33,074 nt of DNA, taken from IMG/VR virus record IMGVR_UViG_2737471830_000002, one strand, 5' to 3'. Source of the DNA: a virus (lineage: Duplodnaviria; Heunggongvirae; Uroviricota; Caudoviricetes). The position numbers and the translations under genes are program-made. Each line of letters starts with the position of its first letter. Within the stretch, counting starts at the first letter, position 1. Of the stretch, positions 18,593 through 29,523 are shown one piece after another. The notes beneath the pieces were generated by a model. The model was given only the letters and a program-made list of their open reading frames with translations. It had not been told where the DNA came from and searched no databases.

Positions 18593-18883
18593 GTCTTACC
18601 CCCAATAAGGGGATTTGCTCTATTTAATTAGGAATAAGGTCGATTACTGATAGAACAAATCCAGGCTACTGTGTTTAGTAATCAGATTTGTTCGTGACCG
18701 ATATGCACGGGCAAAACGGCAGGAGGTTGTTAGCGCAGCCTCTTGCCACCCGCTTTCACGAAGCCAGCCATTACGCTGGTTTTCTTTTATGCAAAGCACA
18801 CCGCACCGTAGCCACAGCGGATAAGGTGATTATTTTTGTCTGTCTGGTATTTGGTTTGATGTGCTTTCAGAAAGGTCGTGATT

Positions 18884-18918
18884 AAAACGCAAAAAGCCCC
18901 GAGCTATTAACTCAGGGC
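18884..18918 (-). terminator. tR'-like intrinsic terminator shortly downstream of pR'
   Basis: Minus-strand hairpin GCCCUGAG-uuaauag-CUCGGGGC followed by UUUUUGCGUUUU, about 30 to 60 nt downstream of the predicted pR' start. Confidence 0.55.
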
Positions 18919-18947
18919 TTTATTTAACGAGTGCATTTATCCATCGT

Positions 18948-19025: not shown

Positions 19026-19649
19026 CTAACGTGTGACCGCATTCAAAATATTGTCTGCGATTGACTCTTCCTTGTGGCATTGCACCACCAGAGCGTCATA
19101 CAGCGGCTTAACAGTGCGTGACCAGGTGGGTTGAGTAAGGTTTGGGATTAGCATCGTTACAGCGCGATATGCGGCGCTTGCTGGCATTCTTGAATAGCCG
19201 ACACCTTTGCATCTTCCGCATTCTTTCTCAACAACTCTCCCCCACTGCTCTGTTTTTGCTATATCAACCGCACGACCTGTACCGTGGCAATCTCTGCATC
19301 TTGCGCCCGGCGTCGCGGCACTACGGCAATAATCCGCATAAGCGAATGTTGCGAGTACTTGCAGTACCTTTGCCTTAGTATTTCCTTCGAGCTTTGCCAC
19401 ACCACGGTATTTCCCCGATACCTTGTGTGCAAATTGCATCAGATAGTTGATAGCCTTTTGTTTGTCGTTCTGGCTGAGTTCATGCTTACCGCAGAATGCA
19501 GCCATTCCGAATCCGGCTTGTGATTGCGCCATCCCCATAGCAGCCATCACATCAGTACCGGAAAGAGAGTCAGAAGCCGTAGCCCGTGGTGAGTCGCTCA
19601 TCATCGGGCTTTTTGGCGAATGAAATTTAGCTACGCTTTCGAGTCTCAT
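19026..19649 (-). CDS. Q: Late gene antiterminator Q (lambda-type)
   Basis: 207 aa, MRLESVAKFHSPKSPMMSDSPRATASDSLSG...CRDCHGTGRAVD...CGRCKGVGYS, near-identical to lambda Q. Confidence 0.9.
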   Translation of the reverse strand: MRLESVAKFHSPKSPMMSDSPRATASDSLSGTDVMAAMGMAQSQAGFGMAAFCGKHELSQNDKQKAINYLMQFAHKVSGKYRGVAKLEGNTKAKVLQVLATFAYADYCRSAATPGARCRDCHGTGRAVDIAKTEQWGRVVEKECGRCKGVGYSRMPASAAYRAVTMLIPNLTQPTWSRTVKPLYDALVVQCHKEESIADNILNAVTR

Positions 19650-24431: not shown

Positions 24432-24710
24432 TCAGGCCTCGAAGAATTCGCCGTTCTTCGGGGCTTTTTCTTTTGTCAGCATTCTGGCTACTTTCTTAGC
24501 CAGTTCCGCCAACTCCTCGTCTTCAACACCCCATTCAAGAACAGCCAGAAGCATTCCCATTTTTGGGATGAAGCTGTCTTTCCATCGCGAAATTTGCGAT
24601 TCATTAATCCCTAACGCGTCGGCAACCTTTCGCTGACCACGTACAGCAATTCGATTCAGGATGTTGCTTGTAATTGCATTCGCTTTCTTGCGAGTACTTG
24701 TAAGTTCCAT
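24432..24710 (-). CDS. CII-type transcriptional activator (P22 C1-like)
   Basis: MELTSTRKKANAITSNILNRIAVRGQRKVADALGINESQISRWK...LAVLEWGV matches the lambda CII / P22 C1 family; ATG at 24710 with AAGGA RBS. Confidence 0.75.
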   Translation of the reverse strand: MELTSTRKKANAITSNILNRIAVRGQRKVADALGINESQISRWKDSFIPKMGMLLAVLEWGVEDEELAELAKKVARMLTKEKAPKNGEFFEA

Positions 24711-24724
24711 ATGTAAGTATTTCC

Positions 24725-24761
24725 TTAACAAATAAGAAGTTATGCGCATCAACTTATGCGC
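24725..24761 (-). terminator. tR1-like hairpin between nutR and the cII-like gene
   Basis: Minus-strand GCGCAT-AAGTTG-ATGCGC followed by a U-containing tail; position corresponds to lambda tR1. Confidence 0.35.
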
Positions 24762-24768
24762 GTTGTAT

Positions 24769-24812
24769 TCCCGCATTTCGGCGGGAATGAGGACCATGAC
24801 TGTTAAAGAGCG
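24769..24812 (-). promoter_or_regulatory. nutR (boxA CGCTCTTTAACA and boxB hairpin)
   Basis: Minus-strand CGCTCTTTAACA (24812..24801) then TCCCGCCGAAATGCGGGA (24786..24769); the same boxA/boxB pair recurs at nutL. Confidence 0.6.
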
Positions 24813-24818
24813 GTGTTA

Positions 24819-25013
24819 CTATTTGTTTTTCTTGTTGCTTGGGAAAGGACGAACTTCCTCTCCAATCACACTGCCATCAGGCTTTACCGTAACCATGATG
24901 TTACGGCCTGCCAGAATGGCCTTGCTGATAGCGCACTGGATTACACCAAAGTCACTGGCTGCTTTAGCCTGTCCATGGATTTTGGCGTAATCGGCAAGTG
25001 TCATTCGAATCAT
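24819..25013 (-). CDS. cro: Cro repressor (lambda-type fold)
   Basis: [62 protein letters not shown] aligns along its length with lambda Cro; ATG at 25013 after GGAGAG. Confidence 0.8.
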
Positions 25014-25042
25014 ATGCACTCTCCGTTATTAACCATGAACAA

Positions 25043-25112
25043 AGAATACTACAGGTATTCAAAGCAATCAATACTCAGGGTATTTTTAGTTTAAGTACCT
25101 TAGCTATTAGAA
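25043..25112. promoter_or_regulatory. OR operators with divergent pR and pRM
   Basis: AATACTACAGGTATT (25045..25059) and AATACTCAGGGTATT (25070..25084); minus-strand pR -35 TTGATT and -10 TATTCT overlap them; plus-strand TAGAAT (25107..25112) lies 7 nt before the cI ATG, implying a leaderless cI mRNA. Confidence 0.6.
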
Positions 25113-25119
25113 TTAAGCT

Positions 25120-25836
25120 ATGGAAAATAAAAAATCACTGACGACAGAACAGCTCGAAGACGCTAAGCGGCTTAAGGCTTTGTATGAGTCAAAAAAGAAA
25201 GAATTGGGAATAACCCAATACTCAATTGCTGATGAACTGGGTATCACCCAAGGAGCGGTAGGGCATTATCTTAATGGCAGAAACGCGCTAAACGTTGAGG
25301 TTGCATCTGGTTTTGCACGATTGTTGCAAGTCTCAATTGCTGATTTTAGCCAGTCAATTGCTGCCAAGGTTGCAGAACAGGCAGAAAGCCTTAAGAGCGA
25401 TGCCAACGTAAGGTATGCAGGGGAATACAGAGCAGGAAAGAGGTATCCGGTGTTAAGCAGTATCCAGGCTGGCTCGTGGTGTGAAGCATGCGAACCATAC
25501 ACCATTAAAGACATAGATGTTTGGCTTGAGTCTGACGCGCATATTCAAGGTAATGCGTTCTGGCTTAAAGTGGAAGGTGATTCAATGACGGCACCGGTTG
25601 GGTTAAGCATTCCAGAGGGAACATTCGTTCTTTTCGATACCGGAAGGGAGGCGATCAACGGCAGCTTGGTCATAGCAAAACTTTCTGACTCTAACGAAGC
25701 AACATTCAAGAAGCTGATAATCGACGGCGGAAATAAATACCTCAAGGGACTTAATCCTGCATGGCCTCTCGTGCCAATCAATGGAAACTGCAAGATTATA
25801 GGCGTTGCAATTGAGACAAAACTAAGGCTGGTTTGA
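25120..25836 (+). CDS. cI: CI repressor (HTH N-domain plus S24 LexA-like autopeptidase C-domain)
   Basis: 238 aa; LTTEQLEDAKRLKALYESKKKELGITQ...AFWLKVEGDSMTAP...FKKLI parallels lambda CI including the cleavage-domain motifs. Confidence 0.9.
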   Translation: MENKKSLTTEQLEDAKRLKALYESKKKELGITQYSIADELGITQGAVGHYLNGRNALNVEVASGFARLLQVSIADFSQSIAAKVAEQAESLKSDANVRYAGEYRAGKRYPVLSSIQAGSWCEACEPYTIKDIDVWLESDAHIQGNAFWLKVEGDSMTAPVGLSIPEGTFVLFDTGREAINGSLVIAKLSDSNEATFKKLIIDGGNKYLKGLNPAWPLVPINGNCKIIGVAIETKLRLV

Positions 25837-25853
25837 TCACGCAAGGGGCGATT

Positions 25854-26222
25854 ATGGTTGGAACCGCTATAGCAAGCTTTTTTGGGATGTTGGCAATCTC
25901 GACAATTTACGGCTTAGCGCATGCTTTTATTGCGAAATCTCTATCAGAAAAAATAAGCCAGGCTTGGGCGCATAGATCAGCTCGTTTCATGATTCTGGTG
26001 ATCATAGCAATACAAGGGATATCTGCATTTATCCTCTATGGTTCAAGCTTATACCTGTTGTATCAAGGCGCGACATTTACGCCTTACACCAGTGATTACG
26101 GAACGCTATACGATGGTAGTGAAGACATCTCTATGGCTTGGATCGTCTTTGGTTTATCTATGGCCGTGTCTGTTGTAGCAGACATCATTAAGGTAATTCT
26201 CGTCTTAACCTTCGCTGACTAA
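25854..26222 (+). CDS. Small integral membrane protein co-transcribed with cI; candidate superinfection-exclusion/abortive-infection factor
   Basis: 122 aa from ATG at 25854 (AAGGGG RBS), 18 nt after the cI stop; three or four predicted TM segments; no similarity recognised. Confidence 0.55.
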   Translation: MVGTAIASFFGMLAISTIYGLAHAFIAKSLSEKISQAWAHRSARFMILVIIAIQGISAFILYGSSLYLLYQGATFTPYTSDYGTLYDGSEDISMAWIVFGLSMAVSVVADIIKVILVLTFAD

Positions 26223-26309
26223 CCCATAATCCCGGCAGCAATAGCTATCGGGATCCACTTCACATATCCCGCATAAAAAAACACTGAACAAGAAGACACC
26301 GAAAAAATA

Positions 26310-26396
26310 AATATCCTTTGTATTCATTTGCTTATCATTATTTCACCAAAAATAAATACCTTGGGTATTTACACAATAGAATACCTACAGTATTCT
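26310..26396 (+). promoter_or_regulatory. OL operators and pL
   Basis: AATATCCTTTGTATT (26310..26324), AATACCTTGGGTATT (26355..26369), AATACCTACAGTATT (26380..26394); -35 TTTACA (26368..26373), 17-bp spacer, -10 TATTCT (26391..26396). Confidence 0.6.
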
Positions 26397-26441
26397 TTAG
26401 CCATCAGCAGGACGCTGGAAGCCAAACGGAACAGATTGGCA

Positions 26442-26483
26442 GGCTCTTTAACATTGATGGGATTGTCCCGCCGAAATGCGGGA
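26442..26483 (+). promoter_or_regulatory. nutL (boxA and boxB)
   Basis: GGCTCTTTAACA (26442..26453) and TCCCGCCGAAATGCGGGA (26466..26483), identical boxB to nutR, upstream of N. Confidence 0.6.
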
Positions 26484-26590
26484 ACCAAAGAGTAGTTGGC
26501 TTTGGGGTGACGTGAAGTGCAGCTGCACGACGGCAACCGGAAGATAAGCACCCGGAGCGTCACCGCCAAAGTCAATCATCGGAGGTCAAC

Positions 26591-26896
26591 ATGACAGTAG
26601 TCATTACTTATCTGGCTGACGATAACGCCAGAAATCGCCGCAGAGCACGCAGACAGGCTCAACGTGAACAGGCAATGCAAGAACAGCGATTGGCACGAAA
26701 AATTGCGCTAAAGCTCTCTGGTTGCGTCAGAGCAGATAAAGCAGCATCACTCGGAAGCCTTCGCTGCAAGAAGGCAGAAGAAGTCGAGAGTAAACAGAAC
26801 CATATTTACTACCGCAAGCCACGCAGTGAAATGGGTGTGACCTGTTCAGGCCGCCAGAAGCAACGCGGAAAATCAATTCCAGCTTATTACGATTGA
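26591..26896 (+). CDS. N: N-type transcription antiterminator
   Basis: Arginine-rich motif NARNRRRARRQAQREQ at the N-terminus; C-terminus ...KPRSEMGVTCSGRQKQRGKSIP parallels lambda N; GGAGG RBS. Confidence 0.8.
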   Translation: MTVVITYLADDNARNRRRARRQAQREQAMQEQRLARKIALKLSGCVRADKAASLGSLRCKKAEEVESKQNHIYYRKPRSEMGVTCSGRQKQRGKSIPAYYD

Positions 26897-26904
26897 GGTG
26901 AGAT

Positions 26905-27156
26905 ATGGAATTTCATGAAAGTGCGATTTGTGATTTTCGCGCTAACGCAAATTCAGTAAAACCACAGCCAATTGCAGTTCTTTTTAAAACAATGGGTGCG
27001 TGGGCTGTTTTATGCTTCGCCGCTGACGACACTGACGCAAGAATGGCAATAGGCCAAGAGATGGAGATGGACCCGACAAACGATGAATTCATAATTTATG
27101 GCGCTCCATCTAATTACTTACTTGATACCTGCAACATTTACAACAAGGCTGCCTGA
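26905..27156 (+). CDS. Hypothetical protein (83 aa) at the ral-equivalent position
   Basis: ORF directly after N with GAGGTGAG RBS; followed by an intrinsic terminator. Confidence 0.45.
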   Translation: MEFHESAICDFRANANSVKPQPIAVLFKTMGAWAVLCFAADDTDARMAIGQEMEMDPTNDEFIIYGAPSNYLLDTCNIYNKAA

Positions 27157-27175
27157 TGGTGGCCTTTATTTTTGG
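27145..27175 (+). terminator. Intrinsic terminator (tL1-like)
   Basis: AAGGCUGCC-UGAU-GGUGGCCUU stem-loop followed by UAUUUUUGG. Confidence 0.5.
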
Positions 27176-27202
27176 CATAAACAACAGAATAAACACTGCA
27201 CT

Positions 27203-27230
27203 GTGTATTCATTCCAACGAGTGAATACAC
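27203..27230. repeat. Perfect 9-bp inverted repeat GTGTATTCA-N10-TGAATACAC
   Basis: Read directly; lies between two intrinsic terminators in an intergenic region. Confidence 0.6.
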
Positions 27231-27292
27231 GGAGCAATGTCGCTCGTAACTAAACAGGAGCCGACTTGTTCTGATTATTGGAAATCTTCTTT

Positions 27293-27320
27293 GCCCTCTA
27301 ATGTGAGGGCGATTTTTTAT
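27293..27320 (+). terminator. Intrinsic terminator
   Basis: GCCCTC-TAATGT-GAGGGC followed by GATTTTTTAT. Confidence 0.6.
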
Positions 27321-27338
27321 CTGTGAGGATATGAACAG

Positions 27339-27707
27339 ATGTCAAACATCAAAAAATACATCATTGATTACGACTGGAAAGCATCAATAGAAATTGAAAT
27401 CGACCATGACGTAATGACAGAGGAAAAACTTCACCAGATTAATAATTTCTGGTCAGACTCTGAATACCGACTCAATAAACACGGCTCTGTATTAAATGCT
27501 GTATTAATCATGCTGGCACAACATGCTCTGCTTATAACAATTTCAAAAGACCTAAATGCATATGGTGTTGTTTGTGAGTTCGACTGGGATGATGGAAATG
27601 GTCAGGAAGGATGGCCTCCAATGGATGGTAGTGAAGGAATAAGAATTACCGATATCGACACATCTGGAATATTTGATTCAGATGATATGACTATCAAAGC
27701 CGCCTGA
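27339..27707 (+). CDS. Hypothetical acidic protein (122 aa), candidate anti-defence factor
   Basis: ORF with GAGGA RBS, bracketed upstream by two terminators; Asp/Glu-rich (for example DWDDGNGQEGW, ITDIDTSGIFDSDDM); no recognised family. Confidence 0.55.
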   Translation: MSNIKKYIIDYDWKASIEIEIDHDVMTEEKLHQINNFWSDSEYRLNKHGSVLNAVLIMLAQHALLITISKDLNAYGVVCEFDWDDGNGQEGWPPMDGSEGIRITDIDTSGIFDSDDMTIKAA

Positions 27708-27782
27708 GCGCGGCTTTACCGCATACCAATAATGCTTCACGAGAGGCATTTTCATTATGCAATCAAATATAAGGAGTTACCC

Positions 27783-27917
27783 ATGATGCACTTTCAGCTC
27801 GCGGGTAGCGGCGTCATGTCCGCTTTCTACCCGCACGAATCTGAATTATCACGCCGAGTTAAACAATTAATCAGAGCAGCAAAGAAACAACTGGAGGCGT
27901 TATGCGCAATGAAATAG
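27783..27917 (+). CDS. cIII: CIII-like protein (FtsH inhibitor family)
   Basis: 44 aa from ATG at 27783 (AAGGAG RBS); HFQLAGSGVMSAFYPHESELSRRVKQLIRAAKK parallels the lambda CIII central helix. Confidence 0.5.
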   Translation: MMHFQLAGSGVMSAFYPHESELSRRVKQLIRAAKKQLEALCAMK

Positions 27918-28054
27918 CCATTAATCACCAGATGCTTCGTGCTGCACAGAACAAAGCAGTAATAGCCAGATTTATTGGTGATTCAAAAATGTGGCTTGAA
28001 GCAAATAAAGCGATGAAATCAGCTATCAACCTTCCGTGGTATCGCAGGAAATGA
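27902..28054 (+). CDS. kil: Kil-like small protein
   Basis: 50 aa; start overlaps the cIII-like stop, GGAGG RBS; VIARFIGDSKMWLEANKAMKSAI resembles the lambda Kil core as recalled. Confidence 0.4.
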   Translation: MRNEIAINHQMLRAAQNKAVIARFIGDSKMWLEANKAMKSAINLPWYRRK

Positions 28055-28129
28055 GTTTTACAGATAACTGGTCAGACGAAGAATTCATTCGTCAGATGAA
28101 AGATTTAATCGGTAACGAAGGAGATATTC

Positions 28130-28300
28130 ATGTCACTTGCAACCACAGTGAAGGAGAGCAAGTTACAGAGACGCATGTACACGCAGAAAGCTCTCTGGTA
28201 TCGCCATAATGGTGACCGCGAAGGAATGCGGGTATGCCTTAATTTGTCCCGAGTCGAAGTATTAAATCAGCGTTATTTCCTTGGGCCGTGTCCATTCTGA
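28130..28300 (+). CDS. Hypothetical small protein (56 aa); alternative overlapping ORF at 28051..28209
   Basis: ATG at 28130 with AAGGAG RBS, ends 8 nt before the annealase start; which of the two overlapping frames is expressed cannot be decided from sequence alone. Confidence 0.3.
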   Translation: MSLATTVKESKLQRRMYTQKALWYRHNGDREGMRVCLNLSRVEVLNQRYFLGPCPF

Positions 28301-28308
28301 GGTGAATT

Positions 28309-29016
28309 ATGGATTTGAACAAATTCGATGAGCCATTCAGCCCTGAAGATATCGAATGGCGAATACAGCAAAGCGGTAAAACACGCGATGGCAAGGTGTG
28401 GGCTATGGTGCTGGCTTATGTCACGAACCGGGCAATCATGAAACGCCTGGACGATGTTTGCGGCAAAGCAGGATGGCGCAATGAATACCGCGATATTCCC
28501 AACAACGGCGGAGTTGAATGCGGCATATCAATCAAGATTGATTCCGAATGGGTAACCAAATGGGATGCTGCTGAAAACACGCAGGTAGAAGCCGTCAAAG
28601 GTGGTCGTTCCGGTGCAATGAAGCGCGCTGCCGTTCAGTGGGGAATCGGTCGGTATCTGTATAACCTTGAGGAAGGTTTCGCACAAACATCTCTCGATAA
28701 AAAGCAGGGGTGGCACAGGGCAAAACTGAAGGATGGAACAGGATTTTACTGGCTCCCTCCATCGCTGCCGGGATGGGCAATCCCAGCATCAGATAACAAA
28801 CCATCACCAGAAAATACCAACCAGAAATCTCCATCGGTTGACTGCGAACAAATCCTGAAAGACTTCAGCGATTATGCGTCAACAGAAACTGACAAGAAAA
28901 AACTCATCGAGCGTTATCAGCGTGACTGGCAATTAATGGCTGGCAACGAGGAGGCGCAGGCTAAATGCGTTCAGGTAATGAACATCAGAGTTAACGAACT
29001 AAAACAGGCGGCATAA
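28309..29016 (+). CDS. Rad52-family single-strand annealing protein (Sak-like recombinase)
   Basis: 235 aa; GGRSGAMKRAAVQWGIGRYLYNL resembles the Rad52 N-domain signature; immediately precedes ssb. Confidence 0.6.
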   Translation: MDLNKFDEPFSPEDIEWRIQQSGKTRDGKVWAMVLAYVTNRAIMKRLDDVCGKAGWRNEYRDIPNNGGVECGISIKIDSEWVTKWDAAENTQVEAVKGGRSGAMKRAAVQWGIGRYLYNLEEGFAQTSLDKKQGWHRAKLKDGTGFYWLPPSLPGWAIPASDNKPSPENTNQKSPSVDCEQILKDFSDYASTETDKKKLIERYQRDWQLMAGNEEAQAKCVQVMNIRVNELKQAA

Positions 29017-29523
29017 ATGGCAAGCAGAGGCGTAAATAAGGTGATTATCCTTGGTCGGGTAGGACAAGACCCGGAAGTTCGATACTCACCATCAGGAACA
29101 GCGTTCGCTAACCTGACAATAGCCACGTCAGAACAATGGCGAGATAAAAATACTGGCGAGCAAAAGGAATTGACTGAATGGCATCGTGTTGCTGTATCCG
29201 GGAAACTGGCTGAGGTCGTGGGGCAGTATGTGAAAAAAGGTGATCAGATTTATTTCGAGGGAATGCTGAGAACCAGAAAGTGGAAAGACCAGTCAGGGCA
29301 AGACCGTTACACAACCGAGGTTCATGTCGGAATTAATGGCGTGATGCAAATGCTTGGCGGCATTGGCGACAGCAAACAACAAGCAGCCAGCAAGCAATCA
29401 CAGAAGCCACAGCAGCAATCATCACCAGCACAACACAACGAACCTCCGATGGATTTTGACGACGATATACCCTTTGCACCAGTAACTCTCCCCTTCCCTC
29501 GTCACGCTATTCACGCAATTTAA
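29017..29523 (+). CDS. ssb: Single-stranded DNA-binding protein with C-terminal extension
   Basis: OB-fold N-terminus [44 protein letters not shown]...; acidic tip [11 protein letters not shown] is followed by [15 protein letters not shown] before the stop. Confidence 0.9.

Follow-up and report, generated by a model that had tools for sequence, protein, structure and literature searches.

Closest described systems

The closest described system is the small RNA LPR1 of bacteriophage lambda, since renamed PreS, an Hfq-enriched sRNA encoded between ea10 and ral, which was reported by Silverman, Nashef, Bruner, Noy, and Melamed (bioRxiv 10.1101/2024.10.31.621285). Its 3' end corresponds to the tL2a terminator, its 5' end was set from coverage and northern sizes, and the northern blots gave forms of ~88 and ~68 nt, seen in the lytic cycle only, from 10 min after cI857 induction. 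By means of a single-stranded seed, confirmed through compensatory mutations, PreS pairs with the dnaA-dnaN junction, whereupon dnaN translation goes up, and it also pairs with alaS, which is repressed. Deletion of the seed or of the full sRNA lowered lambda DNA replication and reduced the spontaneous phage yield 2-4 fold, in an Hfq-dependent manner, and PreS was also reported in Stx-converting and other lambdoid phages (all from bioRxiv 10.1101/2024.10.31.621285).

A second set of relevant RNAs is known from EHEC and EPEC, namely AgvB, AsxR, StxS, HnrS, and Pas, which are likewise Hfq-associated, encoded by lambdoid prophages, and ended by intrinsic terminators. They reside in the late or PR' moron region or in structural operons, in contrast to the pL operon location of PreS, and there is no sequence relationship.

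The window discussed in the following is the whole stretch of 33,074 nucleotides of IMG/VR virus record IMGVR_UViG_2737471830_000002, read on the strand given. Among phage records, Stx1- and Stx2-converting phages come nearest to it (99% identity); the prophage that carries the region is an ordinary one of lambdoid or Stx-like type.

The early-left operon of the window

On the + strand the order is cI, a candidate pL, a nutL-like boxA/boxB, N, ORF83, the PreS region, ea10, and cIII. The features that precede and follow the PreS region are:

25120-25836, + strand: cI-type repressor
26368..26396, + strand: candidate pL promoter, from a consensus scan (TTTACA-17-TATTCT, 9/12 matches)
26444..26483, + strand: nutL-like site, read from the sequence, with a boxA-like GCTCTTTAAC followed by a boxB-like hairpin, CCCGC-CGAAAT-GCGGG
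26591..26896, + strand: N-like antitermination protein, 101 aa (phrog_271 'anti-termination protein N-like', E = 2.6e-35)
26905..27156, + strand: ORF83, 83 aa (phrog_2471, E = 1.4e-61), in the position of lambda ral
27339..27707, + strand: ea10 homologue, an acidic protein of 122 aa (phrog_646, E = 2.9e-70)

As judged from its sequence, the locus is a lambdoid early-left (pL) operon with N-type antitermination. The candidate pL, a match to the consensus and nothing further, lies between cI and N, as does the lambdoid pL, and would drive transcription of N, ORF83, PreS, and ea10. The element at 26444..26483, located ~110-150 nt 5' of the N-like gene, is assigned to nutL by its likeness to lambda nutL. 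ORF83 is also annotated in HK106 and in VT2-Sakai-type phages; alignment with lambda revealed that its last ~17 nt, together with the terminator-like hairpin at its end (terminator 1, see below), are common to the end of lambda ral. The name ea10 is the one used in the annotation of lambda and the Stx phages, and its homologues are often mislabelled ssb. Compared with lambda, the window has ORF83 in place of ral and a stronger terminator 1, and its N and immunity region are of another lambdoid type. A first-pass annotation of this DNA had placed two terminators in an operon read under N control, a setting that the N-like gene, the nutL-like site, and the + strand gene order bear out; the region had not been recognized there as the counterpart of the lambda ral-ea10 spacer.

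Identity and mapping of the small RNA

Over the 206 bp at 27140-27345, the identity to the lambda ral-ea10 intergenic region amounts to 97.6%, and this spacer of the pL operon very probably encodes the known Hfq-dependent sRNA PreS (LPR1). Its ends were placed with the cloning/T7 primers GAGCAATGTCGCTCGTAACT ... CCTCCAGTGTGAGGGCGATTTTTTA from Table S5 of the preprint, which gives the following arrangement:

27232..27319, + strand: PreS/LPR1 homologue, 88 nt, from the published primers; +1 at GAGCAATGTCGC..., 3' end at ...GAGGGCGATTTTTTA
27252..27319 (approximate), + strand: putative processed form of ~68 nt (LPR1-S), with the 5' end estimated from the published size
27267..27292, + strand: seed, or target-pairing region, from the mutagenesis and seed-deletion primers; identical to lambda

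The window copy agrees with lambda PreS in 86 of the 88 bases, the two differences, at 27299 (T for C) and 27301 (A for G), both being located in the terminator loop. The published numbering of the alaS pairing (LPR1 nt 42-56) agrees with a +1 at 27232. Furthermore, the bases altered in the published mutants are those of lambda, with M1 (dnaN) corresponding to the CTG at 27271-27273 and M2 (alaS) to the GAA at 27281-27283, and the published seed deletion maps to about 27267-27283. The predicted fold of the RNA consists of a 5' stem-loop, a largely open seed, and the terminator with its U-tail, the intrinsic type of 3' end that is typical of Hfq binding and corresponds to the Hfq proximal-face module; the LPR1-S cut, as estimated, would be located in the AU-rich loop of this 5' stem-loop. 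With the dnaA-dnaN junction rebuilt from the primers of the preprint, the duplex with PreS was predicted at -41 kcal/mol, compared with -16.7 +/- 3.6 for shuffled seeds.

Homology, operon place, seed bases, and a rho-independent terminator with U-tail all assign the window copy to PreS/LPR1, which it resembles in its position 5' of ea10, in the seed with the validated bases, and in the tL2a-type terminator. The feature is already known in the sense that a near-identical copy of it is present here, and for this window there is little new in a textbook lambda terminator and an sRNA that was characterised in 2024. The suggestion that an RNA of about 100 nt might be encoded between the two terminators was correct as to the presence of a small RNA; it measures 88 nt, runs from 27232 through the second terminator, and leaves out the inverted repeat.

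A search of the whole window against Rfam at the gathering threshold returned 0 hits, and at E <= 10 the segment 27050-27450 gave chance-level hits only, every one of them at E >= 0.1 and well short of the threshold. The EHEC/EPEC prophage sRNAs AgvB, AsxR, Pas, and HnrS were considered and rejected, their loci being located in late or PR' regions; no member of the group AgvB, AsxR, StxS, HnrS, and Pas was found by Rfam in the window.

The terminator-like hairpins

A consensus scan for terminators found both of the hairpins that the first-pass annotation had named:

27145..27173, + strand: terminator 1, AAGGCTGCC-TGAT-GGTGGCCTT plus TATTTTT
27293..27318, + strand: terminator 2, the tL2a of lambda, GCCCTC-TAATGT-GAGGGC with T6 at 27313-27318

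In each, a G+C-rich stem-loop leads directly into a T-tract of the transcribed strand, and each is more stable on the + strand. The stem of terminator 2 covers about 27293-27310. The scan by itself carries no enrichment (4 sites in 25000-29500 vs 4.1 +/- 2.0 in shuffles). The stem of terminator 1 (27145-27153/27158-27166) comprises 9 pairs, 5 of them G-C, with the ORF83 stop codon inside the TGAT loop, and its energy is -13.3 kcal/mol on the + strand vs -7.4 on the - strand. The identity of terminator 2 as tL2a rests on the statement in the preprint and on the annotation of phage O276, where the homologous hairpin is entered as 'Transcription terminator tL2a'; in HK106 it is a rho-independent terminator, and the lambda GenBank and RefSeq records have no terminator features at this spot. 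For termination at tL2a and its suppression by N, the basis is the tL2a literature that the preprint cites. In lambda, tL2a is the first of the tL2 cluster of the pL operon, a homologous hairpin and T-tract ~20 nt 5' of the ea10 start, from which the window copy differs in two loop bases.

The two hairpins behave differently among the relatives. Terminator 1 is strong in the window copy and in Stx phages; in lambda it is weak, with two stem mismatches. In one class of flanks it has been rebuilt with another 5' arm and loop (AGGCCG-CATAGT-CGGCCT), and it is missing in those flank classes in which homology starts at 27170, 27188, 27198, or 27232. Terminator 1 is therefore no constant partner of the repeat, and the layout of two terminators around a repeat is specific to this arrangement rather than a conserved unit. 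By its sequence distribution, terminator 1 appears to be part of the upstream gene and not of the cassette formed by the hairpin and PreS; it may serve as the gene-end terminator or as a stabiliser of ORF83. The tL2a hairpin would make the 3' end of PreS and at the same time dampen N-independent read-through into ea10.

It might be argued that these elements are insulators and nothing else, two tandem terminators that block read-through from pL into ea10 unless N is present, with no RNA product between them. Both hairpins do match the intrinsic-terminator consensus, tL2a is a classical terminator of the pL operon, and N as well as a nutL-like site are found in this operon. Such a reading is very unlikely, in view of the lambda sequence, which is identical over the body of the sRNA and gives rise to a stable sRNA that is bound by Hfq, has validated targets, and shows a phenotype in the phage. 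Moreover, the 114 bp from hairpin to terminator are far better conserved than the neighbouring genes, and terminator 1 is weak or missing in many carriers. The terminators are, in short, real-looking, the logic of antitermination by N holds, and there is a small RNA, so that the original interpretation is partly supported.

The inverted repeat 5' of PreS

The perfect 9-bp inverted repeat had been noted at 27203..27230, with GTGTATTCA at 27203-27211 and its exact complement at 27222-27230. This holds, and the structure proved to be larger than described:

27201..27232, + strand: predicted RNA hairpin directly 5' of PreS, with a 14-bp stem (27201-27214/27219-27232), two G-U pairs, and a CAAC loop

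The hairpin can be extended to 22-nt arms with 82% complementarity. Its last paired base is the +1 of PreS, and the repeat is located outside the mature sRNA. A bare 9-bp repeat is expected ~2-3 times per 33 kb by our own estimate. The 183-nt region, however, folds at -65.2 kcal/mol, compared with -39.1 +/- 4.2 after shuffling (z = -6.2; none of 200 shuffles did as well), and the 32-nt hairpin, at -17.7 kcal/mol, is among only 5 + strand loci this stable in the whole window. As - strand RNA it reaches -13.1 kcal/mol; for all 4 of the hairpins examined, the + strand RNA was the more stable one.

The hairpin was compared over ~280 related loci, taken from IMG/VR and phage records. In ~100 of them the exact place of the hairpin of the window (type A) is taken by another hairpin, CCTATAGCAGATT-T(A/G)CG-AGTCTGCTATGTG (type B), for which two of the search patterns had enriched the sample. 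When both are aligned from the base, a C pairs with the +1 G in either type, and 7 of the 13 pairs are changed on both sides with pairing kept. G-U pairs occur in both types, and in each case the + strand RNA is more stable than its complement. The covariation argument rests on this comparison of type A with type B, because within each type singleton changes only were found, some of which improve and some of which weaken the stem. In many carriers, the upstream stop codon directly abuts the hairpin. As regards the conservation of the repeat in related prophages, which had been put forward as a check, all elements are conserved in hundreds of phages, with the reservation that about a third of the loci sampled carry the type B hairpin instead.

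These data bear on the proposal that the repeat is a regulator binding site, that is, a DNA operator for a dimeric regulator, of phage or host, acting on ea10 or a local promoter. The perfect dyad symmetry over 9 bp and the location of the repeat 5' of a conserved unit speak for such a site. On the other hand, the half-site shows no enrichment across the window (10 matches with <= 1 mismatch vs 7.6 expected), a promoter-like site is not found close by, the stem extends by way of G-T pairs that pair only in the + strand RNA, and the arms of the full stem are separated by a mere 4 nt. Furthermore, relatives carry a hairpin of the same geometry and a different sequence, with 7/13 pairs replaced, and in phage O276 the 5' arm has been destroyed by IS903. 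An operator is accordingly rated as highly improbable. The compensated exchange of the stem between types A and B, the G-U pairs, the unenriched half-site, and the lack of a promoter together favour, from the sequence comparison, an RNA structure at the level of the transcript over an operator or a promoter.

It is conceivable, at somewhat less than even confidence, that the inverted repeat in its form as an RNA hairpin marks or creates the 5' end of PreS. In phage O276 (L125, MH547045), IS903 is inserted within the 5' arm at the equivalent of ~27209 in the window, such that the hairpin is destroyed and PreS and tL2a are intact; this insertion represents a natural mutant for the role of the hairpin.

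Conservation and mosaic spread

The PreS cassette occurs in 344 phage records. Among 5,426 complete E. coli genomes, 2,234 (about 41%) carry it, at up to 6 places per genome. PreS is unannotated in RefSeq and absent from Rfam, a noteworthy gap in annotation for a cassette so common in E. coli. Over the ~280 loci, the left breakpoints of homology cluster at 27148, 27161, 27188, 27198, and 27232, and sequences 5' of 27198 are unrelated among the carriers; on the right, homology ends at 27310 or 27318, or runs on into ea10. The cassette has 34 distinct left and 39 distinct right flanks, and a reading of the ORF lists gave at least 8 gene families upstream (including Ral and ORF83) and at least 6 downstream (including Ea10 and CIII). 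The 114 bp between hairpin and terminator stand out from the flanking genes by a far higher conservation. The varied flanks and the clustered breakpoints characterise the hairpin and PreS as a mobile mosaic cassette.

The same loci allow one to judge an open reading frame of 51 aa at 27098-27253 (+), which takes in terminator 1, the hairpin, and the first part of PreS. A match to phrog_31828 covers its full length (E = 9.5e-42), and some records of Stx phages list it as a hypothetical protein; that it is a real gene is nonetheless scarcely credible, as 161 of 204 related loci, lambda included, have no ATG-initiated ORF in this frame, and the 51-aa form is kept in only 3. In addition, it overlaps ORF83 out of frame and crosses mosaic junctions. 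The family phrog_31828 is most simply understood as repeated automatic ORF calls on near-identical DNA. Not being conserved, the ORF was rejected as a gene; it is probably an ORF-calling artefact that has been propagated into PHROGs.

A third terminator-like hairpin, AATGCTTCACGAGAGGCATT followed by TTCATT, is located at 27731-27760 (+) between ea10 and cIII, at the expected place of the next tL2 site of lambda. In phages devoid of ea10, the sequence of 27731-27760 is situated directly 3' of the PreS terminator, from which it follows that ea10 behaves as an insertable unit.

Exact matches to the hairpin of the lambda type (L258-L280) were also encountered in assemblies of Pseudoxanthomonas, Shewanella, Bradyrhizobium, Pseudomonas, Neobacillus, and others. 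Several of these are contigs of ~48.4-48.5 kb, many with low coverage, which looks like contamination by lambda control DNA. The hairpin scan of genome contigs, consisting mostly of such lambda contamination in unrelated genera, is uninformative on host range.

A diverged relative in P22-like phages

In 33 of 95 type B loci, what comes after the hairpin is a diverged PreS relative of ~100-105 nt instead of the canonical PreS. This relative keeps the 5' GAGCAAT(A)TCGCTCGTAAC, its first 20 nt being as in PreS; in the core, GTTCTGATTATTGG is changed to GTTCTGGTTAATCG, which amounts to an altered seed, and there is extra sequence and a different terminator. It occurs in P22-like Salmonella phages, among them P22, ST160, ST104, and BTP1 (loci e.g. 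L227, L232, L229, L243, L249), and the P22 copy lies between ORF67 and gene 17 (AF217253 10490-10620, i.e. L281:1201-1331). Hybrids, which join the PreS seed to the variant terminator, were found as well (L101, L201). The relative is unannotated and has no Rfam family. The conservation survey of the preprint applied an identity cut-off of 92% or more (bioRxiv 10.1101/2024.10.31.621285), such that P22-like relatives would have been missed.

From its sequence, the P22-like element can be regarded as a putative diverged PreS-like RNA. It offers natural variation for studying the release of an sRNA from an antiterminated operon, as well as the part played by the conserved 5' hairpin. If the wider PreS family is real, the diverged seed of the P22-like relative would mean retargeted regulation of the host.

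How PreS might be made

Small RNAs of the 3'UTR type that depend on Hfq, such as CpxQ, are processed from longer mRNAs, and RNase III sites are known in the lambda pL transcript, in the N leader and in sib. PreS resembles the CpxQ type in that it shares its terminator with the operon transcript, appears without a promoter of its own, and exists in a shorter processed form; it differs in its intercistronic position within an antiterminated operon and in the dedicated hairpin at the 5' side. Along these lines, PreS may be cut out of the N-antiterminated pL transcript. We infer such processing because a sigma-70 promoter is not evident and because conservation does not extend upstream of the cassette. 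The hairpin may mark or generate the 5' end of PreS during excision, and may in addition serve the upstream mRNA as a protective cap at the 3' end.

The opposite case, in which PreS is the primary transcript of its own lytic-phase promoter inside the hairpin region, and the hairpin is promoter DNA or a 5' leader, deserves attention, because many sRNAs have a promoter of their own and because the conserved cassette starts ~34 nt 5' of +1, just covering the -35 and -10 positions. The consensus scan gave no promoter for PreS, and inspection revealed none common to both hairpin types. More specifically, type A has no sigma-70-like hexamers at the right spacing, and there are none that it shares with type B; the strictly lytic expression, with its start within 10 min of the inactivation of the repressor, is as expected of pL transcription; and the carriers are unrelated in sequence upstream of 27198. 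A separate promoter is thus considered unlikely, with some small room left for a weak internal one.

Processing from the pL transcript, the reading preferred here, has its own difficulties. The N-modified polymerase is expected to read through tL2a, where the 3' end of PreS forms, and with its 12-13 bp the type B hairpin is short for a canonical RNase III substrate. A hairpin processed by RNase III would have ~20 bp or more of near-continuous double-stranded RNA, cleaved inside the stem. In type A the +1 is 14 nt from the loop, and the required length is reached only when the imperfect 22-nt arms are counted; type B offers 12-13 pairs. The junction of hairpin and PreS, ACACG|GAGCAA, is unlike the preference of RNase E.

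Taken as a whole, a tentative proposal, somewhat less likely than not, would be that hairpin, sRNA, and terminator make up one portable cassette, of which the hairpin is an integral component selected for its structure, that endonucleolytic processing of the antiterminated pL transcript at this hairpin sets the 5' end of PreS and leaves a protective 3' hairpin on the upstream mRNA, and that PreS is one member of a wider, undescribed family which includes the P22-like relative.

Further hairpins in the window

A very stable hairpin is also located at 24434-24475 (+), GGCCTCGAAGAA...TTCTTCGGGGCT followed by TTTTTCTTTT. It is antisense to the 3' end of a cII-like gene (24432-24797, -) and has the position and the look of the terminator of the lambdoid OOP antisense RNA, with no Rfam match. 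The hairpin scan gave additional very stable hairpins with T-tracts at 18708-18764 (+), 18878-18934 (-), and 19570-19626 (+), which probably represent terminators close to where late or regulatory genes end.
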